Shown here: one piece after another, positions 1,386 to 53,716 of the stretch
Layout: each line of letters starts with the position of its first letter
How positions within the stretch are numbered: the first letter of the stretch is position 1
Virus record (IMG/VR): IMGVR_UViG_3300033074_001348
Span: 1-64,000 of that record
Direction: 5' to 3' (one strand)
Length of the DNA stretch: 64,000 nt
Origin: a virus
Taxonomy: Duplodnaviria; Caudoviricetes
Notes under the pieces: generated by a model
Told to the model about the DNA's origin: nothing
Databases searched by the model: none
Seen by the model: only the letters and a program-made list of their open reading frames with translations
Made by a program: the position numbers and the translations under genes

Positions 1386-3448
1386 TTATTGACTTTAATC
1401 AGAAGCCGACTTACAGCAAAGATGTTCAGCATCTGATAGACACCTTTAATCCGCCACCACCAAAATACATTGCAGAGCCCGTGCCGGACTTCAGGATGTT
1501 TGACCATCCCGTAAAAGAGGAGGATCGGTATTGGGAGGAGCAGACCAGAAGATGGTTTGAGGGATACACGACACCAAGCGGCGATTACATCCCACCAAAC
1601 CTCTATTTTCATATCCAAAACAGCACGCTTAAAAACATTAATGGCGACACATTTAAGCCCGACTGGAGAGATACTGACGAGCTGATGGCGGTTTGGTCAT
1701 TAGAGTCGATGCGGGATGGAACAAGTGAGTTGGTGTATAAAAGGCGGGAGGTGGGCGCAACAGCTTTTTATTGCAATCAGGGCTTTTGGGTGATGCGCAT
1801 TAAGCCCGGAAGCCATTGCGCTTATACGTCCGGCAAGGGTCAGAAGGGTATCAGCTCTATGTTTAACGACAAGATACTATTTAGCTACAACCGGTTTCAT
1901 AAGTCAGTGCTGAATACGGTTCCCTATCAGCTCAATAACAGCTCCACCAACACAAGCCTTAAGATCGCCATGAAGGCACTTGTGGATGGATCAATAGATG
2001 AGCGTGTAAGTACTTTGATAGCTAAGGAGACCGACGAAAAACCAGACAGTGTTACTAATATTTCCGGAGATAGAGCGGCTTATGTGTATGTAGATGAGGG
2101 CCCGCTACATAAGAGGTTGGATAAATTTTTAGGATCAATTTTTCCGGTAATTAATCAGGGTCCCGTCAGAACCGGGTTGATGGTAATTGCAGGTACAGTA
2201 GAACCAAGTTTGACCGATGTTCAAATTGCAGGATTTCAAGAGCTCATCAACAGGAGTAAAAATCTCAAATTGCGCACCCGATTTTTGCCCGTTTGGATGG
2301 GCATGTTTACTAAAAATGGGTGGAGTAATAAAGAGGCTGGACTACTTTGGTATGAAGAGCAGGTGAGAATGTTTCAGGACTCCGGCGACTTTGTTGGTCT
2401 GAGAGACTTTAAAATGCAGTATCCGAAAGACGAACAGGATATTTTTGACATGGCTGCCGGTACAATGTTTGAGCCAGATAATATTGAGATACTAAAAAAG
2501 AGAAGAGCCGACATTGTAGATAAAAACGAGGAGGGCCAATACAAGTTAGTCCCAACAGCAAACTTTTTTGAGATGATACCTGACACTAAGCGCAGAGACC
2601 CTGAGAAGGATGGCGGCTTTTGGATGGTAGAGCCCCCGAAAGAGGGGCTAAGCTACTTTCAGGCAATTGACAGCATTAGCTCTGATAAAAAAGATGGAGG
2701 GGAGAAAGGGTCGTGGATCGCTTCAGTTATTTTTAAAGGTTTTGACCCGTTAATGCCAGAGCGCAGCTACGAGCCAGTCTGCGTGTATTTCGAGCGCCCC
2801 CAAACCATTGAGGGCGGGTACCGCAATATTGTCAACCAAATGCGGTACTATAATAAATTTGATGGGATTAAAGAGATCAATTACGAGACAAACGCCTCAG
2901 CGGGCAGTCATTTTGGAACCTACCTTGATAAGGAGGGGCTTTATACTAAATATGCCAATAGGAGAAGGGATGTGTCTGGTAAGGGGTATATCAACACTAA
3001 AAAGAGAGGCACGCCGGTAAACGCCCATACCAGAGAGTGGCAGATTAAGCACGCTAATATATTTTTGAGAAAGTATGCGATGCAATTCAGGAGCCTCATT
3101 GTAATTAACCAATTACTTTTAGATGAGCGCAAAAATGCGGACGTGCGAGACGCCTTCTTGGTGTTTATGACATCCATACCTGACTTTGATAAACCGGTAA
3201 AAAGGGAAGACAAGAAAAGATTTAGAACAAATTTAGTGCTTGTACCAGATGGCAACGGTAAAATGGTGTATAAGTCCGAGCCGATTGAGATTGTGCCTGC
3301 GCAATTAATTGAAGATCAGGACGCATTTTTAGCCTTTGATATGGAGTTAAAGCGTAAGTACGGCTTCGACAAACCGTATCAAAAAGCGAATGGGGAGGAG
3401 CGAGAGAAGTACAATCGGTTAAAAGCGCTTTGTGGTCATGCAGATTAA
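1382..3448 (+). CDS. terL: terminase large subunit (crAss-like type)
   Basis: YKRREVGAT Walker-A-like, YVYVDEGP Walker B, AIDSI nuclease aspartate; lies upstream of portal. Confidence 0.85.
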   Translation: MIIDFNQKPTYSKDVQHLIDTFNPPPPKYIAEPVPDFRMFDHPVKEEDRYWEEQTRRWFEGYTTPSGDYIPPNLYFHIQNSTLKNINGDTFKPDWRDTDELMAVWSLESMRDGTSELVYKRREVGATAFYCNQGFWVMRIKPGSHCAYTSGKGQKGISSMFNDKILFSYNRFHKSVLNTVPYQLNNSSTNTSLKIAMKALVDGSIDERVSTLIAKETDEKPDSVTNISGDRAAYVYVDEGPLHKRLDKFLGSIFPVINQGPVRTGLMVIAGTVEPSLTDVQIAGFQELINRSKNLKLRTRFLPVWMGMFTKNGWSNKEAGLLWYEEQVRMFQDSGDFVGLRDFKMQYPKDEQDIFDMAAGTMFEPDNIEILKKRRADIVDKNEEGQYKLVPTANFFEMIPDTKRRDPEKDGGFWMVEPPKEGLSYFQAIDSISSDKKDGGEKGSWIASVIFKGFDPLMPERSYEPVCVYFERPQTIEGGYRNIVNQMRYYNKFDGIKEINYETNASAGSHFGTYLDKEGLYTKYANRRRDVSGKGYINTKKRGTPVNAHTREWQIKHANIFLRKYAMQFRSLIVINQLLLDERKNADVRDAFLVFMTSIPDFDKPVKREDKKRFRTNLVLVPDGNGKMVYKSEPIEIVPAQLIEDQDAFLAFDMELKRKYGFDKPYQKANGEEREKYNRLKALCGHAD

Positions 3449-3653
3449 ATCGGTACGTAAGGGGCATGGAGATAAATCTATCCTGTTCAAAGTAGGGTTA
3501 TTTGGCATTTGCAGAATCGTGGAGGAGCTAAAGGAATACGTATTTTTTCATGAAAAAACAGCAAAAATTGTGGTGTATCGGTGTTACGACCCAGCAAATA
3601 AATTATTGTATGAGGTAGAGGCAGGGGATGGGCTAATCGTGACGTATGTGTAG
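3438..3653 (+). CDS. 71-aa hypothetical protein, homologous to cassette gene 44545-44793
   Basis: IKSVRKGHG...VYRCYDPANKLLYEVEAGDGLIVTY aligns by eye with IKSIEKGTG...VYNGYDVAGQLLFTIEAMSNLTISY. Confidence 0.6.
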   Translation: MQIKSVRKGHGDKSILFKVGLFGICRIVEELKEYVFFHEKTAKIVVYRCYDPANKLLYEVEAGDGLIVTYV

Positions 3654-10762: not shown

Positions 10763-10794
10763 ATTACAAAAGTTGGAGGCAATTAAAAGTTTTG

Positions 10795-10802
10795 TATATT
10801 TG
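10795..10802 (+). promoter_or_regulatory. TAnnTTTG promoter element for tmRNA
   Basis: TATATTTG just upstream of the tmRNA acceptor piece. Confidence 0.6.
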
Positions 10803-10806
10803 AGCC

Positions 10807-11139
10807 GTTCATTGATCTTTAATGGATATTTGTTGGACGAGGGTTCGATACCCTCCGCCTCCACTTAAAGCTCGTAGTTGTGCTTAAATTTCAGGTGATT
10901 CAGGAGTGTAAAAAGCGTGTACTGGATTTAAATGGCGAATCATGACCGCAGCCTGAAAGTTATATGGGGGCGACTGGATTCGACAACAAAGGTAAGTTAT
11001 AGGGAGAACGCAAGCCCATAAAAGGCAACAAAAACTCAGGCAAAGTCATCCCTATGTGGGGTCGCAATGCCAACGTTCAGGCAGCAGCTTGATCGTAAAA
11101 AAAAGAAAGACTCACTTTAATCGGTGGGTCTTTTTTTTT
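10807..11139 (+). ncRNA. ssrA: circularly permuted (two-piece) tmRNA
   Basis: T-arm GAGGG-TTCGATA-CCCTC (10839-10855) and CGCCTCCA (10856-10863) lie upstream of 5' GGGGGCG (10966-10972). The 7-bp acceptor stem has G3:U70. CAACAAA pairs with TTTGTTG. Tag frame 11024-11092 = GNKNSGKVIPMWGRNANVQAAA*. Confidence 0.9.
11106..11139 (+). terminator. intrinsic terminator ending tmRNA coding piece
   Basis: AAAGACTCAC...GTGGGTCTTT followed by a T run. Confidence 0.75.
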
Positions 11140-11172
11140 ATTTCATTTTCTCCTTGTAATTCATTTTTCTAT

Positions 11173-11180
11173 TACTTTTG
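11173..11180 (+). promoter_or_regulatory. TAnnTTTG element 4 nt before ATG
   Basis: TACTTTTG-TAGT-ATG. Confidence 0.55.
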
Positions 11181-11184
11181 TAGT

Positions 11185-12057
11185 ATGCCATTCTACGGTA
11201 CAGATGTCAATAACCGTCTCGACCTCATCATCGACAGGGCATACTCACCTTATTTCTCAGCAGCAAAAAGGAACGAAATACTGCGCATAGCAGTACTTAA
11301 TTCTATTGACAACAGGGTGCAGTCAAACGATAACATTACGGTGCAGGATCAATTGTTCGGCATCTACAAGACCAATCAGGTTTTTGTACCCACCAACAAT
11401 ACGGTCAGTATCGCAGCAACCACCGGAGACATTGCCGATTACCTTCATTTGATGAATTTAAGGGCGAAGTTTGTGGTTCCGTATATTTCCAATTACTTGC
11501 TTGCTGCCTCTAACGCCAGCCCTATTGTAGTGGAGTTCAATAGAGCGATTAACGCTCAAAACGGCTCACTACTTCTTTTCTCCGGAGCGTCCGGCAATAC
11601 GAACGTCAATGGGCAGCGATATGTCAAAAAGATTACCCCGTACCGTTTTGCATTGTACTCAGATGCTAATTTAGCCACACCGGTTGCAGGGAATGGAGTC
11701 TACTCAGGTACCGCCACCGCATCACTGGTGAGGTACGATATGAATTATGCTAAGAATTTAAAGTCTAACCGCAAGTTTTCAGTATTGAACGCACCTACTC
11801 CTGAAGACCCGTTTTACGAAATTGGGTCTGGGAGTATTTGCGTGTATCCATTATCACCTCCGTGCTCAGAGGTAACGGTGGATTACATTAGCACACCGGT
11901 ATTTATTGATGTAAACGATAGTGTTACCGATTTATTCGGAATATATAGCGAAGATTTCATTAATTTCATCTTGCAGATGGCAGCCAAACTGATCGGGGAG
12001 ATTACCCGCGACATGGGGTTGATGCAGTCTGCTATATCCGAGATGCAGCAACCATGA
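11185..12057 (+). CDS. head-tail adaptor / ring protein
   Basis: Start corrected to ATG 11185 (MPFYGTDVNNRLDL); helical N- and C-termini with a beta insertion; position before muzzle-like gene. Confidence 0.55.
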   Translation: MPFYGTDVNNRLDLIIDRAYSPYFSAAKRNEILRIAVLNSIDNRVQSNDNITVQDQLFGIYKTNQVFVPTNNTVSIAATTGDIADYLHLMNLRAKFVVPYISNYLLAASNASPIVVEFNRAINAQNGSLLLFSGASGNTNVNGQRYVKKITPYRFALYSDANLATPVAGNGVYSGTATASLVRYDMNYAKNLKSNRKFSVLNAPTPEDPFYEIGSGSICVYPLSPPCSEVTVDYISTPVFIDVNDSVTDLFGIYSEDFINFILQMAAKLIGEITRDMGLMQSAISEMQQP

Positions 12058-37540: not shown

Positions 37541-38023
37541 ATGGCAACAGACAGAAAGAAAATTATCGCTGAGTTTGGCGATCCGAGGGCAGACGAAAAG
37601 GCCTTTGTAAAAAAATGGATGGTGGTTTTTAATATCGGTAATCATTTTCCGTCACTACCGTTCAAAAAAGTTTATGTCAATTCGGTGTTGATACCACCAA
37701 TTATTGAGACATTCAAATTACTTTCCACAAGAGGTCTGCTTGGCGAGATCAAAAAATATGACGGCTGTTTTTTGGTTCGGTGCATCAGGGGTTATGAAAA
37801 TCCGTGTGTCCCATCTATTCATTCATGGGGCTTGGCGATTGATTTTAACGCATCAGACAACCCGCTTGGATTAAGCCGTGAGCAATGTATCAAAAAGGGA
37901 TTAAAGCCGTTCTCAGAGGCATTTTTTCAGGTATGGAGAGAAACAGGTTGGGTGGTAGGTTATGACTTTAGCCGTAAAGACGGGATGCACTTTCAATGGA
38001 CTAAGAAGTGGGACACCGCTTAA
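37541..38023 (+). CDS. endolysin, M15 family peptidase
   Basis: SIHSWGLAIDFN and DGMHFQ zinc-binding motifs. Confidence 0.85.
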   Translation: MATDRKKIIAEFGDPRADEKAFVKKWMVVFNIGNHFPSLPFKKVYVNSVLIPPIIETFKLLSTRGLLGEIKKYDGCFLVRCIRGYENPCVPSIHSWGLAIDFNASDNPLGLSREQCIKKGLKPFSEAFFQVWRETGWVVGYDFSRKDGMHFQWTKKWDTA

Positions 38024-38057
38024 AACCGAGAAGGTGTTTCTGAATGTGGTGAAGGGG

Positions 38058-38126
38058 TAATATCACGAACCTTTAACTGGTTGCAAATAAGCCTGTTGAA
38101 GATAAAGCTTCGTATATCTGATGTTA
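38058..38126 (+). repeat. 69-bp direct repeat copy 1 (attI-like anchor of cassette array 1)
   Basis: Identical to 44467-44535; identity ends at GTTA. Confidence 0.9.
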
Positions 38127-38135
38127 TACACAACC

Positions 38136-38879
38136 TTAAAAAGACAGCGTTCCAATTGAAAGTTTTTGACTAATTCTATGGATTGCTTTGTCGTAATAAA
38201 ATGTGTCTTTTTCAATTCCTGTAAGGTGCAAATTCATTTTATCCAATTTGTTTACCTTATCAACCGCCAACGCTATTGAACCACTACCAAAATGCGTATC
38301 AATGATTTTATCACCATTGTTAGCATAGTTTTTCAAAAGCCATTCATAAAGCTGTATTGGTTTTTCGTTGGGGTGTATGCGTTCTTGCTTTTCTTTCATA
38401 TTTTGCTGAAGCATTCCGTGCCATTTCCATTTAAACTTTCTTACCGCTGTTTTAAATGAAGTCCAAGCAAGCTCACAATCGGCAAAATCATTGTTCCCGT
38501 TTTCTTTATCCCAAACTATCCAGCAACTACTATCAATAGGTAATTTTGAAATAAAATGATTTGCACCCCAAACAATTTGATTTTTAGAAATTCTGCGTAA
38601 TTCATTCCAATATTCAGATTCAGGAGCTGTTAAATCATTTCCTGAATAAGCCTTATAATCTTTGCTTTTTGCCATTACGCTACGAGTGTGATTTTTTGAG
38701 CCATCTTCGCCAATTCCATACGGAACATCTACTATTGCTAAATCAAATTGTTTATCCTCAAAATCTCGCATTTTATCCAAGCAATCCGAAAGATATACGT
38801 CCAAAAAAGGCTGTGTATAACATCGGTTTGCCGTAATGGCGGTTGAAGTGCTACTATTGAGCTTTTGTGCTGTATTCAT
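38136..38879 (-). CDS. DNA methyltransferase, N6/N4 family (cassette 1)
   Basis: DLAIVDVPYG (motif IV variant), HPNEKP, IIDTHFGSGS (motif I). Confidence 0.85.
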   Translation of the reverse strand: MNTAQKLNSSTSTAITANRCYTQPFLDVYLSDCLDKMRDFEDKQFDLAIVDVPYGIGEDGSKNHTRSVMAKSKDYKAYSGNDLTAPESEYWNELRRISKNQIVWGANHFISKLPIDSSCWIVWDKENGNNDFADCELAWTSFKTAVRKFKWKWHGMLQQNMKEKQERIHPNEKPIQLYEWLLKNYANNGDKIIDTHFGSGSIALAVDKVNKLDKMNLHLTGIEKDTFYYDKAIHRISQKLSIGTLSF

Positions 38880-38948
38880 CTTTTCTACTTTTATTTAACT
38901 TTTGTACTAAATTGTCCGCCACTAACGGCAAGCCGTGAACCGTTAGGC
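38815..38948 (+). repeat. attC-like site E1
   Basis: GTATAAC...GGTTTGCCGTAATGGCGG / CCGCCACTAACGGCAAGCC...GTTAGGC. Confidence 0.8.
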
Positions 38949-38957
38949 GTAATGCCA

Positions 38958-39581
38958 TTAGCGTATCCATTCAATAGTTGGTTTGCCGACATAATCCTTG
39001 TCCCAAACATACCAAGCATAAGCAATCATACCGCTATTCTTCATTTTTACCCCACCTTTGTATAAAGTAACTCGTTTGCTAAATTGGTAAACAGTTTTTA
39101 GAGGAAATTCCTTGTCCTGAAACATCTCATATCTGCTCTCACTTTCCAACCAAACAGTTTTTAAAAACATAGCAATCTTCTTTCTACCTTGCTTTTTTGC
39201 TTTCAATACAAAGTCAAGTGCTAATTTGTAAGGTGGGTTTGTAACTATGTTATCAGCAACTAAATCACTTTGCAAAAAATCAAGTTGTTCACCATATCCT
39301 CTATTTATCAAGTCGGTGCTAATAACTTCAAATCCTTTGTTTTTAAAAACTTCGCTTATATCTCCTTCGCCACAAGCACATTCCCAAATATTTCCGCTAA
39401 AAACTTCTCGTTTCAAAAGTTCTTCTACTGCATAAGGTGGTGTGGGGTAAAAATCCTCCGCTTCACGTTCTCCATTATTTCTGCTCGAACCAACTATTGA
39501 TAGAGCTTTCGTGGAAGGCACTACGCCTAACACGGGTTTGGCAAAATTGCCGTTTTCGTTTTCAAATAAACTTTCTGTCAT
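38958..39581 (-). CDS. adenine DNA methyltransferase (cassette 2)
   Basis: DFYPTP, WECACGEG motif I, IVTNPPY motif IV. Confidence 0.85.
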   Translation of the reverse strand: MTESLFENENGNFAKPVLGVVPSTKALSIVGSSRNNGEREAEDFYPTPPYAVEELLKREVFSGNIWECACGEGDISEVFKNKGFEVISTDLINRGYGEQLDFLQSDLVADNIVTNPPYKLALDFVLKAKKQGRKKIAMFLKTVWLESESRYEMFQDKEFPLKTVYQFSKRVTLYKGGVKMKNSGMIAYAWYVWDKDYVGKPTIEWIR

Positions 39582-39650
39582 AATATCATCTTTTGTTTTT
39601 CAATTTAACTTTTGTGTTCGGCAACTTCGCCAAGCCCGATACCGTTAGCG
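39525..39650 (+). repeat. attC-like site E2
   Basis: GCCTAAC-A-CGGGTTTGGCAAAATTGCCG / CGGCAACTTCGCCAAGCCCG-ATACC-GTTAGCG. Confidence 0.85.
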
Positions 39651-39668
39651 GTAATGCCAACAGACACC

Positions 39669-40169
39669 CTAAAATGGCAATCCATCGGACGGACTTTTAT
39701 TGTCATCATAATTTATTTTAGGCAACCTATCAGGGTTATCAAAAATATTTCCATCTACCTGCATATCACTACCGAAATAATCAATCATTGGAACTAAACT
39801 GCTATGGTTTTTGTAGTAAGAATTATCAATGCACCAACATCCAGTATCTTTATTGTAAACAACAGGATAATAACCAACAATTTTATTTCCTTCTTCGTCC
39901 GTTTCTTCATCTCTTAAAAAATCGCCTTCATAAATTAAGTTGCCAGCCCTATCTGAAACCATTGTGCAAATTGATATTCCAGTAGTATAGCTATCTACTA
40001 AAATATGGTCGCCAGTTCCAAGTTCTTCATTATCTCTTACTATGAAGTTTTGGTTTACGCCTCTATCGCAATTATTGTATAAGTCGCCAAAAACCCATAA
40101 TCCGTTTGACTTTGCTCTGTAATGTGTATTTATCATTTGTTTAAATTTAATCATTTTAACAAGGCACAT
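39669..40169 (-). CDS. YopX family protein (cassette 3)
   Basis: WVFGDL, DRAGNLIYEGD, VDGNIFDNPDRL. Confidence 0.75.
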   Translation of the reverse strand: MCLVKMIKFKQMINTHYRAKSNGLWVFGDLYNNCDRGVNQNFIVRDNEELGTGDHILVDSYTTGISICTMVSDRAGNLIYEGDFLRDEETDEEGNKIVGYYPVVYNKDTGCWCIDNSYYKNHSSLVPMIDYFGSDMQVDGNIFDNPDRLPKINYDDNKSPSDGLPF

Positions 40170-40171
40170 AC

Positions 40172-40302
40172 CGCTAACATAGTGTTGCCAAAATGGGGGC
40201 AGAAGTGCATTTAATGAACATTTGTACTGTGTTCAGCAGTAGTGCTTTTAATGGGTTTTTGTGCTATAAATCCCCCACTTCGGCAACACTCGACCGTTAT
40301 GA
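40172..40302 (+). repeat. attC-like site E3
   Basis: CGCTAAC-AT-AGTGTTGCCAAAATGGGGG / CCCCCACTTCGGCAACACT-CGACC-GTTATGA. Confidence 0.85.
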
Positions 40303-40515
40303 GAAATGCTCAGACTGAACTTCCTCAATCAAGTAAAACTTCTCCCACATACTTTTTGCCCACTCTTCGGCTTGGTGTCTATGTTGAAACACCGCTATAA
40401 TTTTATTACTCCCAATATCCAAACGTTCTGCATCTGGAATGACTGCAAAAGCACTTCTCATAACAGCCGTTTGCTGCAATGGCGGGTTCTGTGGTAAATT
40501 TGATGTTTCTTGCAT
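40297..40515 (-). CDS. hypothetical protein (cassette 4)
   Basis: Stop TAA is the TTA of the GTTA core; starts in the E4 loop, alternative ATG at 40461. Confidence 0.6.
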   Translation of the reverse strand: MQETSNLPQNPPLQQTAVMRSAFAVIPDAERLDIGSNKIIAVFQHRHQAEEWAKSMWEKFYLIEEVQSEHFS

Positions 40516-40589
40516 TTTATTAAATTTTGTGGTTAAACGAAAGTCAGTGCTTGTAATCCGCCACTGGCAGCAATGCTTTTACGTTATGA
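40458..40589 (+). repeat. attC-like site E4
   Basis: TCATAAC...TTGCTGCAATGGCGG / CCGCCACTGGCAGCAA...GTTATGA. Confidence 0.8.
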
Positions 40590-40620
40590 GAAATTTTAAA
40601 AACCTTTCCCCCGCACCGTT

Positions 40621-41004
40621 CTAATCATCATCTTGCGTTGACAAAGAAAATGTTTCACCATCTTCAATATTCATAATTTTGACACCGCAAGAACCGTATT
40701 CAGCAATCCACATTGGGGTATTTTCATCCATATAAAAATCACCGCCTTTGTATCCCGTAAAAGTTTGTCCTAAACATTCATTTTTTAGTTGTTCAACCAA
40801 ACTTGCAACGGTTCTTGTTCCGCTTCCTTTTTCAAGTGCTAAATCTGAATAATATCCACGATATGAATGTGGTTCACATACGTTTTCAATTTCTTTGTCT
40901 TGTGGTAGTTTTTCAAGTTCTGAAATAAATCTACCAAGTGTCATTTGTGATAAAGAACGTTCTGCTCTCCATCCTTTGCTTAATTCATTAAATAATTCTT
41001 GCAT
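40621..41004 (-). CDS. hypothetical phage protein (cassette 5)
   Basis: MTLGRFISELEKLP...PHSYRGYYSDLA...GYKGGDF; start set at ATG 41004. Confidence 0.65.
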   Translation of the reverse strand: MQELFNELSKGWRAERSLSQMTLGRFISELEKLPQDKEIENVCEPHSYRGYYSDLALEKGSGTRTVASLVEQLKNECLGQTFTGYKGGDFYMDENTPMWIAEYGSCGVKIMNIEDGETFSLSTQDDD

Positions 41005-41052
41005 AATATTTTGTTTTTTAAATGCCCACCCTAAAAGGTTTTTAAAACTATC

Positions 41053-41146
41053 CCATAACACGGGTTTGGCAAAATGCCGCAGGACAGTTAGTGCTAAATT
41101 TCAAGTTTCAAGTAGCGGCACTTCGCAAAGCCCGAAACCGTTATGT
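41053..41146 (+). repeat. attC-like site E5 (94-bp class)
   Basis: CCATAAC-A-CGGGTTTGGCAAAATGCCGC / GCGGCACTTCGCAAAGCCCG-AAACC-GTTATGT. Confidence 0.85.
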
Positions 41147-41158
41147 GAGATTGCTAAA

Positions 41159-41377
41159 TTATCGTTTATAATAATGTTTTCTAACACCTAAACCTTCTGA
41201 TTTTAAATGCTTAAAATTTAATCTTTCTTTTAAGTTATCAAATTGTCTTGAGGTAATGCTGTGTTTTTTAATATCATTTGAATTTCTTAATTCATAAATA
41301 GTTCTTTTATTATATTGTATCTGTACTAAAACATCATTATCTTCTAATAATTTTTCTAATTCTTTTATTGTCATCAC
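41159..41377 (-). CDS. hypothetical protein (cassette 6)
   Basis: 72 aa, fills the space between E5 and E6. Confidence 0.6.
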   Translation of the reverse strand: MMTIKELEKLLEDNDVLVQIQYNKRTIYELRNSNDIKKHSITSRQFDNLKERLNFKHLKSEGLGVRKHYYKR

Positions 41378-41403
41378 ATTTTGTTTTAAAAACCCACAAC
41401 CTC

Positions 41404-41536
41404 ACATAACAAGTGTTTGGCAAAAAAGCGGGTTCGGTTATTAATTTAATGTTTGTTTTATATTTGAATGTTTAGTAATTAATCGGAAATTCCGTTTTTT
41501 CTTTCCGCTTCTTCGCCAAGCACTCGGACGTTACCT
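41404..41536 (+). repeat. attC-like site E6
   Basis: ACATAAC-A-AGTGTTTGGCAAAAAAGCGG / CCGCTTCTTCGCCAAGCACT-CGGAC-GTTACCT. Confidence 0.85.
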
Positions 41537-41908
41537 GCTACCTTTCAGACGCTCAATTTCGGAAAGCAGACTATCAACGATTAACAGGCTTTTTTCAACC
41601 CACTCAACAGGCACATCGTCCTCTAAAAATTTCTTATGGGTTTCAGTATAGTGGTCGTGGCTAATTAAACCAAGTGAACAAACCAGCCCTTTGCTATCAG
41701 GTGCAGTTAATGCCCAATGCTTCAAACTAAATTCCCTGCCAGTTCTTGAATTGACATAGGGCAATTCATAGCATTTATGCCACTTCCAACTATCAGGTAA
41801 TTGATTTCTGAGTTTCATAATTTCCTCTACCGATAAGGCAGCAGGTAACACGGGTTTGGCAAAATCGGGGCTTCCGGCTTCATTTGAAATTATTTCTTTC
41901 TCTTTCAT
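41531..41908 (-). CDS. hypothetical protein (cassette 7)
   Basis: Stop in the GTTA core; N-terminus ...DFAKPVLP read through the left arm of half-site E7. Confidence 0.6.
   Translation of the reverse strand: MKEKEIISNEAGSPDFAKPVLPAALSVEEIMKLRNQLPDSWKWHKCYELPYVNSRTGREFSLKHWALTAPDSKGLVCSLGLISHDHYTETHKKFLEDDVPVEWVEKSLLIVDSLLSEIERLKGSR
41843..41908 (+). repeat. truncated attC-like half site E7
   Basis: Left arm TAACACGGGTTTGGCAAAAT identical to E2/E5; no right arm found. Confidence 0.7.
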
Positions 41909-41919
41909 TGGTGAGGTTA

Positions 41920-42156
41920 TTATCTTGAATGATACGGCGACATATAAGGATATTTGTAAGTTATATAAGTATTAAAATCACAAGGCATGACACCAATAAA
42001 CTGCGTAGGTTGAGAATCTTCATACTTACGCCTTTTATCAATAATTGATGCTATTTTTGAATTAACACCCATTAAATCGCCATCGTAAAATCGAACTAAA
42101 ATATAGGGATTAGCAGCACACGCTTTCCTTAATTGACCTACTGTTAAAGTTTTCAT
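41920..42156 (-). CDS. hypothetical protein
   Basis: 78 aa from ATG 42156 (MKTLTVGQLRK). Confidence 0.55.
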   Translation of the reverse strand: MKTLTVGQLRKACAANPYILVRFYDGDLMGVNSKIASIIDKRRKYEDSQPTQFIGVMPCDFNTYITYKYPYMSPYHSR

Positions 42157-42205
42157 CTCATTTATTTTAAACAACCCCAAAGCCAGAACGATGGGGGTGG
42201 GTTAG

Positions 42206-42442
42206 TTAGTAATTTATTACAATTTCAGTTTCGGTAACTTCTTTTATTTTAGGTCGGGCGTTCCTTGCTTCAATTACACAAGGAACTAAAACCATCTCTT
42301 CATACCAAACATCATCGTTTTTATTCATATTAAATCCCTTGTATCTATTGTCAGCACCAAACAAAGTAATATATTTTCCGTCATATTCTAAACGGTAATC
42401 ACCTGCGTAATGCGGTAATATTGGTAGTCTTACTTCTTTCAT
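42206..42442 (-). CDS. hypothetical protein
   Basis: 78 aa from ATG 42442 (MKEVRLP). Confidence 0.55.
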   Translation of the reverse strand: MKEVRLPILPHYAGDYRLEYDGKYITLFGADNRYKGFNMNKNDDVWYEEMVLVPCVIEARNARPKIKEVTETEIVINY

Positions 42443-42495
42443 AATTTTAGTATAAATAACAAACCCCCAAGCCAAAGACAAGAGGGCTTGTCGGG

Positions 42496-42915
42496 TTAGT
42501 CTTCGTTAAAAAAATCTTCTATATTAGGATTGTTATTCCAGTTTTCGATCTTACCGTTTTCATCAATTTTAACAACGATATAATCCCCGTAAGACTCTCG
42601 ATATAAATCCAATATATTGGGAACATAACCGTCTTTTGTAAGAACGGTATTACCTTCTGAATCCAATAAGTGGTAAATCCCATCATCGCAAACTTTGTAA
42701 TGAACATCAGCAGTGACACCTTTCTTCCAATTTGTAATAATTCCAGAATCAATATCAATATTTAATTTCCATCGATCCATTTCTTTGCATGGGATTAAAT
42801 CGCCATGTAAATCATCGACTCCATTAATTGAGCCGTCTTCCCAGTAGCGTACACCTGCATCCACTAACAAGGTTTTAATTTCGACTTCCTTTTCGATTTT
42901 GATTTTTGCTTTCAT
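42496..42915 (-). CDS. conserved hypothetical phage protein
   Basis: 139 aa; VRYWEDGSING...VHYKVCDDG...YVP...YGDYI...IDENGKIENW. Confidence 0.65.
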   Translation of the reverse strand: MKAKIKIEKEVEIKTLLVDAGVRYWEDGSINGVDDLHGDLIPCKEMDRWKLNIDIDSGIITNWKKGVTADVHYKVCDDGIYHLLDSEGNTVLTKDGYVPNILDLYRESYGDYIVVKIDENGKIENWNNNPNIEDFFNED

Positions 42916-43031
42916 AGTAAATGTATAAACAACGAACCCCTCTAAGCCGGGAAGACAGAGAGGGGTTCAGTATGTGAATTAGGCTGATCGCCTGAGATTC
43001 CAATTTGGTGCATCTTCCCGGATTGCAGGGG

Positions 43032-43039
43032 CAAATATA
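43032..43039 (-). promoter_or_regulatory. TAnnTTTG promoter element (leftward)
   Basis: CAAATATA = TATATTTG on the minus strand, back-to-back with a rightward element. Confidence 0.55.
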
Positions 43040-43061
43040 CAAACAATTGTATAAGAAACAA

Positions 43062-43069
43062 TACATTTG
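43062..43069 (+). promoter_or_regulatory. TAnnTTTG promoter element (rightward)
   Basis: TACATTTG upstream of ATG 43084. Confidence 0.55.
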
Positions 43070-43083
43070 TAAAAAAAAATAAC

Positions 43084-44469
43084 ATGAAACTTAAAATCCT
43101 CGCAGCATCCTTTATTATCGGCTTGTCGGTTGTAACTTATAATGCAGTAAACTACGACCCCGTTCCATCCATTATAGAAGCACTCAGGGAAGGCAAGTCC
43201 GTAACGCTCGACTCTGGGGTGGTTTACAATTTTACGGGCTATAAGAACCTCCCAGTAACATCGGAATTTAACTTGAATGGGGCAACTATTAAAGCCGATT
43301 CGATGCTCCAAGCCGAATTTAATGACAACCAATACTTATTTTTATTGGATGGCGGCTACATTCATTCTGGAGCAATTATCGGCGCATCAGGCAAGGTGTA
43401 CAATGCTAAGGCGGGGTATTTTGGGGCTATTCAGGTAATGACGGGTGGTAAAATAAGGTCGGTAAACTTTAAGAATTGCGACAAATGGGCTATTCGGGTC
43501 TTTGGTGATCGATGGTCACATAATGACACAACCTTTATTACATCATGCGTTTTCGATTCAATACCTCGTGACGGATCGGGATATGGTACATGGAATCAGC
43601 ATGGTGTGGTTATAGTCGATTCCTGTAAATTCAATTTCCTGCGTCATGCTTTTGATTGTGGTAGTGAAGGTAACTTAACGGTAATTCAAAACTGCGAGTT
43701 TCGTAATTGCTTTTACATTCCAATTCATCAGCATCGGTATGTAGGTGATTCGGTCGGGGTTGGATTGACGGTGCGTAATTGTAAGTTTTACGATACCTAC
43801 ATGCCCCTTGATATTGGATTGCCGTTTAAAGGCATGAACAGAATTGATAGCAACTATTTTGCCGGCAACTATATTGGTCGCATGGGTCGTGATACGATAC
43901 CCATTGGCACAAACTATATGAACGGTAAAGGCATGATATCTGCTCCTGAAATTATTGGAAGAAATAGCTATAAGGTGGGCGAGAAAATGTCACTAAAGAT
44001 TGACAAGACTGGTTTTTGGAATAACGGTGTAACGAACAGGCAGACGACAACTACATTCAATTATCCAATGGTAAAAGTCTATAGCGTTCACACGGGTGGC
44101 ATTGCTGACACCATGACCGTTATTTGCTCTGATACGGGAATCTATACGTCCATGCGGGTTTTAGCAACCTGCGATATTGAATTTTGGAGTGGCGATAAAG
44201 CGGTTGGAGTGGTGAAAAAAGGAAAGGCGTATGACTATAAATTTTACTACTTCAAGGCGGATGTCAAGATCAAAATTAAAGGCAATCTTATAGGTGTAGA
44301 TCGGGCGACATTCAACGTGGCAGACGGTTATAGGGCGTTACGGGTTCGTACGAATGTCGGGGTGCTGCATCTTGATAATCTATGCTACAACGGATGGTAT
44401 GACACCTATGAGTTTGGACTTAAGACGAAGGTCAAGCAAGTGGGTGAGTGGGTGGAGGTCGGGAAATAA
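43084..44469 (+). CDS. exported right-handed beta-helix protein (polysaccharide lyase-like)
   Basis: N-terminal hydrophobic MKLKILAASFIIGLSVV, beta-helix repeats (ITSCVFD, VDSCKFN, IQNCEFR, VRNCKFY); stop TAA is the first 3 nt of repeat copy 2. Confidence 0.7.
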   Translation: MKLKILAASFIIGLSVVTYNAVNYDPVPSIIEALREGKSVTLDSGVVYNFTGYKNLPVTSEFNLNGATIKADSMLQAEFNDNQYLFLLDGGYIHSGAIIGASGKVYNAKAGYFGAIQVMTGGKIRSVNFKNCDKWAIRVFGDRWSHNDTTFITSCVFDSIPRDGSGYGTWNQHGVVIVDSCKFNFLRHAFDCGSEGNLTVIQNCEFRNCFYIPIHQHRYVGDSVGVGLTVRNCKFYDTYMPLDIGLPFKGMNRIDSNYFAGNYIGRMGRDTIPIGTNYMNGKGMISAPEIIGRNSYKVGEKMSLKIDKTGFWNNGVTNRQTTTTFNYPMVKVYSVHTGGIADTMTVICSDTGIYTSMRVLATCDIEFWSGDKAVGVVKKGKAYDYKFYYFKADVKIKIKGNLIGVDRATFNVADGYRALRVRTNVGVLHLDNLCYNGWYDTYEFGLKTKVKQVGEWVEVGK

Positions 44470-44535
44470 TATCACGAACCTTTAACTGGTTGCAAATAAG
44501 CCTGTTGAAGATAAAGCTTCGTATATCTGATGTTA
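44467..44535 (+). repeat. 69-bp direct repeat copy 2 (attI-like anchor of cassette array 2)
   Basis: Identical to 38058-38126. Confidence 0.9.
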
Positions 44536-44544
44536 GCCGCAAGC

Positions 44545-44793
44545 CTAAGCGACATCGTAACTAATAGTTAGGTTTGACATTGCCTCAATTGTAAAAAGCA
44601 ACTGACCTGCCACATCATAACCATTGTAAACTGTTATCGTAAGGTCGTTATGATACCCTTTGCCGATAGTCTTTTCTTCTTCTTTAATTTCGTGTATCTT
44701 ATCGCCAAATGCAGCATATTGGTACTTGTCGTTTACGGCAAAGTAAGTTGAGCCTTCGCCAGTTCCTTTTTCAATTGATTTTATTCGTTTCAT
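44545..44793 (-). CDS. hypothetical protein (cassette 8)
   Basis: 82 aa; similar to 3438-3653. Confidence 0.6.
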   Translation of the reverse strand: MKRIKSIEKGTGEGSTYFAVNDKYQYAAFGDKIHEIKEEEKTIGKGYHNDLTITVYNGYDVAGQLLFTIEAMSNLTISYDVA

Positions 44794-44821
44794 TTTTATT
44801 TGTGTTGTGAGAAAGGCCAGC

Positions 44822-44915
44822 GGCTAACAGCGGTTTTGCGTCAGGCGGCAGACAGTTGGTGCAAACTTGAAACATCCTATAAGCCGCCCGAACGCAAAGC
44901 CGCAAAACGTTATCG
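44822..44915 (+). repeat. attC-like site E8 (94-bp class)
   Basis: GGCTAAC-A-GCGGTTTTGCGTCAGGCGGC / GCCGCCCGAACGCAAAGCCGC-AAAAC-GTTATCG. Confidence 0.85.
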
Positions 44916-45245
44916 GCTATTTAGAAAATCCCAAAGTTCACCAGCATTTGACATTGGAATATTTTTACCATTATCTGTAACTTTTAAACGATAGTTTTCT
45001 TGTCCAAAATCTAATTCCCAACAGAAATACTCAATCCAACTTTGACCCATTGGACAAAGTGCAGTATCATTCATTGCGACTTGCAAAACTTCTAATAAAG
45101 CATTTTGCAAGTAATGATTTTTAGGTAATAGATTAGCTGTAAAACTTTCGGGAAACGCTTTGCCTAAATTTTCAGAAACAGAAATATCATATTTAATTTG
45201 TTCCTGTATTGCTTCAATTGATTTTATAAAAAGTTGTTTATCCAT
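44910..45245 (-). CDS. hypothetical protein (cassette 9, gene 2)
   Basis: Stop in the GTTA core; WIEYFCWELDFG motif. Confidence 0.65.
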   Translation of the reverse strand: MDKQLFIKSIEAIQEQIKYDISVSENLGKAFPESFTANLLPKNHYLQNALLEVLQVAMNDTALCPMGQSWIEYFCWELDFGQENYRLKVTDNGKNIPMSNAGELWDFLNSR

Positions 45246-45489
45246 TTTTATCTTCTTTTAAGTGGTTATATTGACCAGTAGCGTATTGGTGCAAGTTAGT
45301 TTCGTTGTATAGGCTACAAATACTTGACAATGCTTCTAACTCATCATTATTATTTTCAATCCATTCATCAATACTTTCTTCCTCATCAAAAGCATCTTTA
45401 ACAGCAGCCTTTACACCTTTTCTGACAAAGTTTTTTATTGCTCTTAAATCCGATTTTGTTAATGTTACATTTACATATTCTAATTCCAT
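45238..45489 (-). CDS. hypothetical protein (cassette 9, gene 1)
   Basis: 83 aa, overlaps the next gene's start. Confidence 0.55.
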   Translation of the reverse strand: MELEYVNVTLTKSDLRAIKNFVRKGVKAAVKDAFDEEESIDEWIENNNDELEALSSICSLYNETNLHQYATGQYNHLKEDKNG

Positions 45490-45531
45490 ATTTTGACATT
45501 TTAATTTTAAAGTTTACGACTTAAAAACAGC

Positions 45532-45662
45532 CGATAACAAGGGTTTGAACGCAAGTGGGGCAGATGTGATACTATCAACATCAGTGGTTCATTCATCATT
45601 TGTACTACTATCAACATTAGTGCTACAAATCCCCACCTGCGTCAAGCCCAAAAACGTTAAGT
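45532..45662 (+). repeat. attC-like site E9
   Basis: CGATAAC-AA-GGGTTTGAACGCAAGTGGGG / CCCCACCTGCGTCAAGCCC-AAAAAC-GTTAAGT. Confidence 0.8.
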
Positions 45663-47382: not shown

Positions 47383-48114
47383 TTAATAATTTTTAGCCAG
47401 TTGATTTATTACTTCTGATCCGTAAGCGTTTTTGGTAAGATTAATAAATTTGTGTACAGTCATTTTATCGCTCAGGTCGATGTCATGCTCTTTTATGAAA
47501 TTATCTTTCCCAATAGAACAACTTCCCGTCAAAGTGGTGTGCCACTTATAAAACTCAGATGCTAAATATTCGTCCGTTCCATTAAATTGCGCAATAAAAT
47601 CAGCAATTCGATCTTCAAGTGGGCGATTCTCATTATACTTCTGTTGAGCCTCCGAAATTGCTTTTTCTATTGTTTCCCCATGCGCAAAGAAATTACCTAC
47701 TTTGGCGATATAGCAGTCTTGTAAGGTCAAATCACTTTTAATGATTGCACCTTTAGCAACTTGCCCCTTTACAGAATAAATAATAGTTGGAACGCCATCA
47801 ATGTAATGAACGGGATAGTTGGTGTATTTTTTTAAGTCGTAACCGTCACCGGAACCGTAACCGGAACCGGAACCGTCACCGGAACCGTAACCGTAACCGG
47901 AACCGGAACCGTAACCGTCACCGTAACCGTCACCGGAACCGTCACCGGAACCGTAACCGTAACCGTCACCGGAACCGTCACCGGAACCGTCACCGGAACC
48001 GTAACCGGAACCGGAACCGTAACCGTCACCGTAACCGTCACCGGAACCGTAACCGGAACCGTAACCGGAACCGTCACCGTCACTTACTTTCAAAAACTCT
48101 GTTATTGCTTCCAT
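47383..48114 (-). CDS. (S/Y/D)-Gly repeat phage protein
   Basis: Start at ATG 48114; GDGSGYG repeats then WHTTLTGSC C-terminal domain. Confidence 0.7.
   Translation of the reverse strand: MEAITEFLKVSDGDGSGYGSGYGSGDGYGDGYGSGSGYGSGDGSGDGSGDGYGYGSGDGSGDGYGDGYGSGSGYGYGSGDGSGSGYGSGDGYDLKKYTNYPVHYIDGVPTIIYSVKGQVAKGAIIKSDLTLQDCYIAKVGNFFAHGETIEKAISEAQQKYNENRPLEDRIADFIAQFNGTDEYLASEFYKWHTTLTGSCSIGKDNFIKEHDIDLSDKMTVHKFINLTKNAYGSEVINQLAKNY
47839..48084 (-). repeat. in-frame 6-bp tandem repeat (~41 units)
   Basis: Units GTAACC/GTCACC/GGAACC on +, encoding YG/DG/SG on -. Confidence 0.9.
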
Positions 48115-48386
48115 TCTTTTTGTTTTAAAAGATTTGCGGTTGCATTTGCGGTGCATTCAATTATTTGAATCGGGTGTGCAATTTCCATTTTTGGAACAGT
48201 TACAGTTAATCTACTGCCACTACCAACTCCTGATTGGCTAATTTGCTCTACAGCAGCAGCACCTTCCCAGTAATGAATTTTACGCACATTTTTCATAATA
48301 ACAGACTTTTCTGTCTTAGATTCAATTTGACCAAAGAACACTCCGGCTCTATCGGCTCTTACAATGTAGTAGTTTTCGTTTTCCAT
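48102..48386 (-). CDS. conserved small phage protein (DUF6948-like)
   Basis: YIVRADRAGVFFG...RKIHYWEGAA; family name recalled, not verified. Confidence 0.55.
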   Translation of the reverse strand: MENENYYIVRADRAGVFFGQIESKTEKSVIMKNVRKIHYWEGAAAVEQISQSGVGSGSRLTVTVPKMEIAHPIQIIECTANATANLLKQKEWKQ

Positions 48387-50419: not shown

Positions 50420-51199
50420 ATGACAAATCAAACAGGGCGCATCAGTCAGCGCAAAACAAGTCAGACTGGCTCCACATTGCCGGAGATCGGCAAGATTAAG
50501 GTAGGGGAAAAGCGTGAAAATTCAAAGGGTGTAGAATACCCTACCTCGCTTGATTACTTTAAGGCAACAGGCAACTTTGCTGCTGCGTTCAATGCGCAGT
50601 ACGGGCAGAACCCTAAATCACTTACGGTAGCATTTATCAGTGATGATCTCAATGAGGTCTGTAACGAGCGATACGAGTGTTGGGATAAAGGGAAGCGATG
50701 GGGATGGGGTGATGGAGAAACGTTTACCGTATGGGATGGAAAGGCCTATAAAGAGGGCATTGAAAAGACAGACCCGATGGTGACCAGTAAGAAGTGGGAT
50801 ACCATGCTTACGCTGCGTTTTGTGCTGCTTGATATGCGTGGCATCTTGGGATACTGGACGTTCCAATCGAAGGGAAAGTCAACCTCAATTCCATCTATTG
50901 TGAAGGCATTTGACTATGTGAAAGAACGTGCGAGTACCATTATTGGGTTCCCCTTTCAGTTGGTGGTTGAAAAGAAGGTGGGTTACAATCCCGGAGACCC
51001 TAAAAGCTATCCAATGGTTACGCTTGTGCCTTGCTTTACCGAAGAGGCTATCGAAAAGGTGCATAATTACTTGGAGCAAGGAGGCGCAGCCAATCGCCTG
51101 AGCGCTAAATTTGTGAAGGCTCAGGAGGCGTTGGTGGAGCATCAATCTAAAATAATGCTACCAGAGAACACGGTAAATCCTGAGCAGCATGAAGGTTGA
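50420..51199 (+). CDS. recombination directionality factor-like (Gp3-like) protein
   Basis: LPEIGKIKVGEKR...YPTSLDYF N-terminus; adjacent to an exonuclease. Confidence 0.5.
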   Translation: MTNQTGRISQRKTSQTGSTLPEIGKIKVGEKRENSKGVEYPTSLDYFKATGNFAAAFNAQYGQNPKSLTVAFISDDLNEVCNERYECWDKGKRWGWGDGETFTVWDGKAYKEGIEKTDPMVTSKKWDTMLTLRFVLLDMRGILGYWTFQSKGKSTSIPSIVKAFDYVKERASTIIGFPFQLVVEKKVGYNPGDPKSYPMVTLVPCFTEEAIEKVHNYLEQGGAANRLSAKFVKAQEALVEHQSKIMLPENTVNPEQHEG

Positions 51200-53041: not shown

Positions 53042-53716
53042 TTAAGGTGTCGTGCATGGTGCCTCTATTCTCTGTATAAGCCTCCAAACAGTTGATGCGC
53101 TCCATTTGCCACCTTTTGAGGTATGGAACCCTTTGTTATTGAGCTCCTCTGCAACTTTATCATAGGCAAGACCCTGCTTTTTGAGCAGTGTGGCGTGTGC
53201 TGCTGCTCGTTCGTTGTCGGGAGAGAGTCGGGCTTTCTCTGCCTGTACTCTTGCGCCAATGACACGACCGGATTGACTAAATTTTTCAGGATTACCCAAT
53301 GCGACGCCTTGCTTTTTGAGCGCCATTAGTGCTGCTTTGGTTCTGATGGAGATGAGCTCCCGCTCCCTCTCGGCAAAAGCAAAGTAAAGGGTTAGCATGA
53401 ACCGGTCAGGTTTGCCGGGTAGGTCGCAAAACTCAATTTGACCGGGTAGCCAATCAAGTACCGTCAGTCCATCTTTTACATCACGGCTCAATCTGTCTAC
53501 TTTAGCGACTACAAGCGTATAGCCGTTTGTTTTGCAGCACTCAATCGCCTGTTTTAGTATGGGTCGGTCGGTAATGGTTTTAGCCGATTCCACTTCGATA
53601 AATTCCTGTTCTAATTCAGGGTAGAAACGGGCAACAATTTGCTGCTGCGCTTCCAGTCCCAGTCCTGAGTCCCCCTGCTTCTTGGTGGATACTCGGTAGT
53701 ATGCTACGTATTTCAT
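53042..53716 (-). CDS. serine recombinase (resolvase domain + short DNA-binding C-terminus)
   Basis: YYRVSTKKQ catalytic Ser, DRPIL, VVAKVDRLSR, FAERERELISIRTKA. Confidence 0.9.
   Translation of the reverse strand: MKYVAYYRVSTKKQGDSGLGLEAQQQIVARFYPELEQEFIEVESAKTITDRPILKQAIECCKTNGYTLVVAKVDRLSRDVKDGLTVLDWLPGQIEFCDLPGKPDRFMLTLYFAFAERERELISIRTKAALMALKKQGVALGNPEKFSQSGRVIGARVQAEKARLSPDNERAAAHATLLKKQGLAYDKVAEELNNKGFHTSKGGKWSASTVWRLIQRIEAPCTTP

Follow-up and report, generated by a model that had tools for sequence, protein, structure and literature searches.

Two identical 69-bp sequences as putative attI-type sites of integrase-less cassette arrays in a Bacteroidota phage

What stands at the start of two gene cassette arrays in a phage, and by what means could cassettes have been joined to it? 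The question arises from a window of 64,000 nucleotides (positions 1 to 64,000 of the IMG/VR record IMGVR_UViG_3300033074_001348, Caudoviricetes), in which the 69 bases at 38058-38126 are found again, 100% identical, at 44467-44535. An earlier note, made from the sequence alone, had described this 69-mer as a docking site resembling the attI site of integrons, which heads two arrays and brackets a 6.4-kb island. Direct comparison bears out the identity of the two copies, and the 69-mer has exactly two copies, both at array heads, in the complete genome (the full IMG/VR record, 77,312 bp, CheckV completeness 100%). Judging from sequence comparisons, the 69-mer is probably the attI-type site, double-stranded and non-hairpin, of two integrase-less integron-like arrays in a Bacteroidota phage. 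The two copies and their putative core regions are as follows.

38058..38126, plus strand: copy 1 of the 69-mer, head of array 1, with the predicted crossover at G38123/T38124.
44467..44535, plus strand: copy 2 of the 69-mer, head of array 2, with the predicted crossover at G44532/T44533.
38105..38126, plus strand: attI-like core of copy 1, consisting of TTCGTATAT, a 5-nt spacer, and GTTA.
44514..44535, plus strand: attI-like core of copy 2, the twin of the core in copy 1.

The identity of the copies stops past GATGTTA, where copy 1 continues with TACACAACC and copy 2 with GCCGCAAGCC. The earlier description, in which identity ends at the GTT core where a cassette begins, is accurate, and a longer 82-nt match between the copies (94%) reflects only a family-level likeness of cassette starts. 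The 3' end of the 69-mer reads ...TTCGTATAT-CTGAT-G^TTA (a caret marks a junction), with the first cassette attached at this G^TT. The arrays that follow are listed here.

38124..41916, read on the plus strand: array 1, seven cassettes with open reading frames (ORFs) on the minus strand; the last G of the cassettes is at 38942, 39644, 40296, 40583, 41140, 41530, and 41916.
44533..45656, read on the plus strand: array 2, two cassettes.
44533-44909: cassette 1 of array 2, with an 82-aa ORF.
44910-45656: cassette 2 of array 2, with a 111-aa and an 83-aa ORF.

Pairs of YAAC and GTTR with complementary arms form hairpins that are confined to 38.8-45.7 kb of the genome, and each array ORF is flanked by extended core and inverse-core boxes, which is the signature of a cassette. 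With seven plus two attC-type elements and no tyrosine recombinase in the genome, the arrays qualify as clusters of attC sites lacking integron integrases (CALINs). The last attC of array 1, called Eg (41846-41916), is degenerate and forms no hairpin.

The polarity of the arrays was fixed by cassettes shared with other contigs, which are designated here by L numbers. Window positions 38926-39647, with the cassette unit at 38943-39647, match 10594-11314 of L035 at 94-97%; the homology sets in at CGTTAGGCG, takes in the ORF together with the hairpin to the right of it, and ends at GTTA. A cassette shared by L084 and L122 likewise has its hairpin on the right and breaks at GTTA on both sides. From these boundaries, a cassette on the plus strand consists of TTRRRY, an antisense ORF, RYYYAAC, a hairpin, and G. 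Because the shared cassettes fix the polarity, the 69-mer sits at the attI end of each array, in agreement with the claim that it heads both of them. The minus strand folds better in five of the seven hairpins, as expected if it is the bottom strand. The classical polarity, with sense ORFs and the minus strand on top, had been deduced from the longer arm by the ORF stop and was overturned by the shared cassettes.

The sequences that follow the 69-mer were then compared among strain-level relatives. An identical endolysin protein, encoded upstream of copy 1, occurs on many contigs with different arrays (10 of 120 index blocks were examined), and past ...GGGGTA these contigs show two states, with or without the 69-mer.

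Window, copy 1: 69-mer, then GTTATACACAACC.
L138: 69-mer, then GTTATACGCAAGC.
L139: 69-mer, then GTTGTGCGGCATGG.
L141: 69-mer, then GTTAGGTGCAAT.
L145: 94% variant of the 69-mer, then GTTATAAGCAATGCC.
Window, copy 2: 69-mer, then GTTAGCCGCAAGCC.
L286 (a metagenome contig): beta-helix gene and an identical 69-mer, with GTTATGTGCC in place of the window's GTTAGCCGC.

Seven different cassettes are thus joined to the 69-mer at one G^TT, which makes the 69-mer a start of array as an attI site is. This bears out the view of GTT as a real cassette junction, and in other genomes, too, the 69-mer is followed by variable cassettes. Wherever this could be checked, the cassette start after the 69-mer complements the inverse core of the hairpin that follows. 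Contigs L140, L144, L147, and L148 terminate within or at the 69-mer, which is how an assembler behaves at a repeat with variable flanks. Among close relatives, five of five with the 69-mer carry cassettes and three of three without it (L142, L143, and L146) have no attC hairpins. The distal cassette 7 of the window is shared with L139 at 99% and is second in the L139 array, where it moves as a unit; the head-proximal cassettes differ between the window and L139, which fits an order of age with the older cassettes lying distally. Cassette 2 of array 2 (111-aa and 83-aa ORFs) is present in array 1 of L145 with 99.6% identity. The 82-aa cassette (44533-44909) is found on eight other contigs, always with the junction ...^GTTAGCCGC, and is joined to the 69-mer, to two different attCs, and to three other non-hairpin heads. 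The L281 head joined to this cassette directly adjoins a tyrosine recombinase (Phage_integrase) gene.

For array heads in other contigs, the core that matches the first hairpin of an array was located on the left side of that hairpin, and the sequence upstream of this core was collected. The 50 non-redundant heads, one of which is the window's, have T/A at -9/-8, C at -13, A at -4, and A at -1, and the 8-mer (G/T)CG(T/G)nTA(T/G) is present at -14 in 28/49 heads of other contigs. The 69-mer carries TCGTATAT at -13. When the window was left out of the training of a position weight matrix, both 69-mer sites ranked second and third of 661 GTTA sites in the genome. The last ~20 nt of the 69-mer (TTCGTATAT-N5-GTTA) fit the motif found ahead of the first cassette in about 50 unrelated arrays. 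What may correspond to the sequence boxes of an attI site is a degenerate motif common to about 50 arrays and some IntI-adjacent heads. The head word (G/T)CG(T/G)nTA(T/G) is often half of a short palindrome (about 50 viral loci, e.g., L041, L049, and L058), and the same word adjoins IntI-like genes in Bacteroidota genomes (L262 and L272). In the ~45 bp of the 69-mer upstream of this motif there are two words resembling CTG(G)TTG and a weak inverted repeat; this part may accommodate accessory binding sites or be a spacer.

Several points weigh against assigning the 69-mer as an attI-type site. The 69-mer is offset by 1 nt from the modal position of the head motif. The motif is degenerate, the matrix was trained on heads picked by our own rule and was partly scored on its own training set, and two of the four heads adjoining integrase genes score low on it; with a degenerate motif and such scoring, the match amounts to moderate evidence. 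The complete phage genome contains no PF00589 tyrosine recombinase, so the adjacency to intI that is typical of attI is lacking. No enzyme is tied to the 69-mer. Contig L017 has arrays at both places without the 69-mer, which begin directly at ...TAG^TTA. The L145 variant has ATAAC, an attC-like inverse core, where the window has ATATC. In our scans the 69-mer is confined to this phage lineage and never adjoins an integrase: IMG/VR was scanned for exact matches to each half of the 69-mer and gave none, and a short-query BLAST against 1.26 Mb of related viral loci returned chance words only. Finally, a preference for insertion at the head, as expected of the 'primary' site of the earlier note, is suggested by one comparison, that with L139.

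Because the phage has no tyrosine recombinase, we infer that the enzyme acting on the 69-mer would be supplied in trans, and the cognate enzyme would be an IntI-like recombinase of the host. Such genes adjoin arrays in three of five array-bearing bacterial genomes.

L262, 301-2043: IntI-like recombinase beside an array.
L269, 1207-2316: IntI-like recombinase beside an array.
L271, 1198-2337: IntI-like recombinase beside an array.

The best TIGR02249 matches in the five genomes, including these recombinases, score 204-222 bits, below the cut-off of 265, and the NF040815 match score reaches 222.6. Heads of the same attC family adjoin IntI-like genes in Flavobacterium silvisoli and in two metagenome-assembled genomes, one of these heads being GGCGTATAGCCGAAC^GTTA. 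The F. silvisoli head G^TT lies 49 nt past the stop codon of the IntI-like gene, and in a Cyclobacteriaceae chromosome the IntI-like gene ends GGCGTATAG and is followed by CCGAAC^GTTA. The IntI-like protein of F. silvisoli has a ~300-aa N-terminal extension and is encoded co-directionally with the array. Among 24 array-bearing viral contigs, a tyrosine recombinase is present in six (two of the nine that are >=90% complete) and a serine recombinase (PF00239) in two.

How the 69-mer came to stand at both heads can be approached through L017, which is 75-82% identical to the window. At each of the two places the window is longer than L017 by exactly 63 bases, which lie between TA and GTTA; there L017 reads ...GGGGTAG^TTAATCC and ...GGAGGTAG^TTAGCC. 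Insertion of an ORF-less cassette at TAG^TT was considered and rejected, since the 63 bp have TA^ATAT on their left, where such a cassette would show a core junction (G^TT). The ATAAC of the L145 variant may hint at attC ancestry. The 63 bp may have been gained twice, copied from head to head, or lost in L017. The further proposal that the 6.4-kb island arrived through this site was not borne out: L017, L143, and L146 lack the 69-mer, and in all three the beta-helix gene and the three small genes occupy the position that they have in the window. A module that is in place in relatives without the 69-mer belongs to the backbone. The 38123/44533 junction that deletion between the copies would leave is present in no contig, and no contig joins the endolysin gene and the 69-mer to array 2; the search of relatives for this junction thus came back empty.

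A rival reading takes the 69-mer for an attC that has degenerated, left over as the anchor hairpin of a fossil first cassette, with the arrays growing by attC x attC recombination at GTTA and not by an attI-type reaction. Arrays without attI (CALINs) must grow in this way, the minus strand of the 69-mer can be laid out as TAAC, 5-nt unpaired ATCAG, stem, loop, and stem, with the 5-nt unpaired stretch ahead of GTTA that true attCs have, and the L145 variant supplies a proper ATAAC inverse core. The stem in question (ACGAAcCTTT ... AAAGcTTCGT) is imperfect and weak, at -7 to -10 kcal/mol, and the fold is not significant (z -0.3 to -1.5 versus shuffles). An arm-alignment scan that detects 307 hairpins of the family misses the 69-mer, whose arms have no sequence in common with the family and lack the stable hairpin with 3-4 nt of arm asymmetry expected of an attC. 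In the window, the left end of the 69-mer (TAATATC, with ATATC in place of the inverse core) cannot pair with GTTATAC or GTTAGCC, so that R''/R' pairing fails, and the 3' end matches the motif of non-hairpin heads. We therefore regard a degenerate attC as unlikely, and the earlier remark that the 69-mer is not a hairpin like the nine array elements, E1-E9, is broadly right: it has a weak stem and they are clear hairpins.

Three further explanations were weighed. The exact 63-bp difference from L017 at both places, the imperfect terminal inverted repeats (ATATCACGAAC / GCTTCGTATAT), and the complete identity of the copies could point to a MITE-like (miniature inverted-repeat transposable element-like) or hairpin mobile element inserted twice at TA^GTTA, with no part in cassette capture. 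We hold this to be quite improbable, as there is no target-site duplication, the genome has two copies in place of the many dispersed ones of a MITE, with none in the 1.26 Mb of related viral loci or in public scans outside the lineage, both copies are exactly at array heads, and presence follows cassette presence in close relatives. Both copies also lie between a plus-strand late gene and a minus-strand gene string and carry the weak inverted repeat, as might a terminator or protein-binding site that regulates or insulates convergent units, with cassette variation being incidental. That is highly improbable, since neither copy contains a predicted intrinsic terminator, the AT-rich stem encloses a loop of 29 nt and lacks a T run, relatives exist without the 69-mer, and seven cassettes at one exact G^TT would go unexplained; the outcome that the earlier note had named as refuting its proposal, a site behaving only as a terminator, thus did not materialize. 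Lastly, the direct repeats could be res-like sites at which the phage's own small serine recombinase deletes or inverts the 6.4-kb segment, and two relevant proteins are encoded.

53042-53716, minus strand: 224-aa protein in which a Resolvase domain is joined by the beginning of a Recombinase domain.
50420-51199, plus strand: Gp3-like (recombination directionality factor-like) protein.

L017 also has the serine recombinase but no 69-mer, PF00239 is found in just two of the 24 array-bearing viral contigs mentioned above, the usual short dyad with a central dinucleotide is absent, and the missing deletion junction speaks against such an activity, which makes res-like sites barely credible.

Returning to the attI-type site, the following mechanism is envisaged. 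In the infected cell, a tyrosine recombinase of the IntI-like kind, encoded by the Bacteroidota host, would act in trans; it would take the attC of a circular cassette, as a folded bottom (minus) strand, and recombine it with the 3'-terminal ~20 bp of the 69-mer. These distal 20 bp would provide the recognition motif common to other array heads, and an incoming cassette would land beside the 69-mer and displace older cassettes away from it. More tentatively, the 69-mer may be a portable attI module that was copied to both heads, and cassettes of host integrons would then have two efficient landing pads in a phage that lacks an integrase and is probably virulent. As part of the same tentative proposal, the phage arrays may belong to a large Bacteroidota integron clade that is essentially undescribed, which would be characterized by antisense cassettes starting in their own attC, a short shared attI motif, and IntI-like enzymes below the curated cut-off, and which would extend over at least 120 viral contigs and at least 120 bacterial genomes. 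If this is true, a phage without an integrase keeps dedicated landing sites and can borrow a host recombinase to renew its accessory genes, and renewal of methyltransferases and of a Tad4-domain gene at strain-level speed bears on the phage-host arms race. For this putative integron clade there is now also a concrete site, of about 20 bp plus 45 bp, together with candidate enzymes.

The attC family itself is widespread. The arm word TAACACGGGTTTGGCAAAA is found in at least 120 IMG/VR contigs and at least 120 Bacteroidota genome contigs, and the 307 family hairpins come from 115 viral loci. Arm lengths in these hairpins differ by 3-4 nt with a strongly bimodal distribution, and the ORFs lie on the strand with the extra bases in the 5' arm in 349/370 clear cases. 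Searches of INPHARED phages returned only a methyltransferase match to Nonlabens phage P12024L in near mode and no match to an attC in distant mode. The cassettes of the window include two DNA methyltransferases, and a sister-strain cassette ORF (L141, 4004-4348) has a Tad4 domain (PF25186); this cargo suggests a possible role in counter-defence. Several cassette ORFs begin in their own attC loop and read through the arm (38877-38879, 39579-39581, and 41906-41908), so that, with the polarity found here, the start codon moves with the cassette. Eg is retained at the right-hand end of array 1 not only in the window but also in L017 and L138. Its coding part is a leader (MKEKE..FAKPVL) that continues into three unrelated ORF bodies, so that exchange would take place at the Eg AAC box as well. 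Upstream of the 94% variant of the 69-mer in L145, a ~190-nt unit with a 73-aa ORF sits between two copies of the 17-nt flank AATGTGGTGAAGGGGTA (3225-3470).

The genes that flank the two copies are these.

37541..38023, plus strand: endolysin (Peptidase_M15_4), the last intact plus-strand gene ahead of copy 1.
38022..38060, plus strand: 12-codon relic (KTEKVFLNVVKG, then stop), the C-terminus of an older lysis-module gene, as read from the sequence.
43084..44469, plus strand: 461-aa ORF without a Pfam match, the 'beta-helix' gene of the earlier note, which converges on array 2.

The earlier note had a plus-strand gene converging on the leftward array at both copies, and one correction applies, at copy 1. 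The first three bases of copy 2 are the TAA stop of ORF 43084-44469, so the copy does supply the stop of the beta-helix gene, which is part of the conserved backbone and not of a cassette. The endolysin ORF stops at 38023, which is 35 nt short of copy 1, and the TAA at 38058-38060 is the stop of the relic, whose homologous lysis-module gene is intact in L017, with the end KTEKVYLNVVKG and a TAG stop. Three fixed small genes lie between array 1 and the beta-helix gene, and each is preceded by a short GC hairpin (CCCC.AAGCC...GGGG; 42160-42215, 42445-42500, and 42925-42975) that is also kept in L017, L143, and L146. Elsewhere in the window, the structural region contains a match to a circularly permuted tmRNA (10806-11092, plus strand; Rfam RF04321, 66.9 bits), which ARAGORN also calls, at 10774-11381. 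A periodic repeat of 12/18 nt (GGAACCGT/GTAACCGT units) at 47796-48113 lies inside ORF 47383-48156 (minus strand) and encodes a Gly/Ser/Tyr/Asp-rich stretch.

Compared with the attI of known integrons (e.g., attI1 of class 1 integrons), the 69-mer is likewise a non-hairpin site that starts the array, receives the first cassette at the G^TT of a GTTRRRY-type core, carries a short element, predicted to serve recognition, a few bases ahead of the core, and is followed by head-proximal cassettes that are more variable than distal ones. It differs in that the phage site has no adjacent intI, nor any tyrosine recombinase in the genome, and in that two identical copies head two arrays; its similarity to attI1 is limited to GATGTTA. 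Since the phage cassette ORFs are antisense to the array direction, the 69-mer need not hold a cassette promoter. A precedent for one site at two heads is a published Shewanella prophage, in which the same attI heads both an integron and a CALIN. In that prophage and in the present phage alike, a single sequence heads two arrays of the same genome; the prophage has its own integron integrase and a known Shewanella attI, whereas here there is no integrase and the site is lineage-specific. The integron integrase has also been reported to insert cassettes outside attI and attC sites (bioRxiv 10.1101/2022.09.11.507474). The heads of the L017 type (...GGTAG^TTA at a stop codon) resemble such minimal sites, whereas the 69-mer is longer, conserved, duplicated, and endowed with the head motif, and is not a minimal GTT.

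IntegronFinder 2.0 reported almost no complete integrons in Bacteroidetes. CALINs in virulent phages have already been published, including that of Polaribacter phage P12002L, one attC of which was recombined by IntI1 (Front Microbiol 2023, PMC9892861). P12002L resembles the phage described here in having a lysis module followed by a leftward string of DNA methyltransferase cassettes and no integrase, and its attCs are of the same family, with short hairpins, a ATTAAAACGA loop, and matching pairs of core and inverse core. P12002L does not have the 69-mer, and the searched passages of PMC9892861 treat attC sites and no head site. The phage described here differs from P12002L in its two arrays with nine cassettes and in a turnover of cassettes between strains at a defined head.

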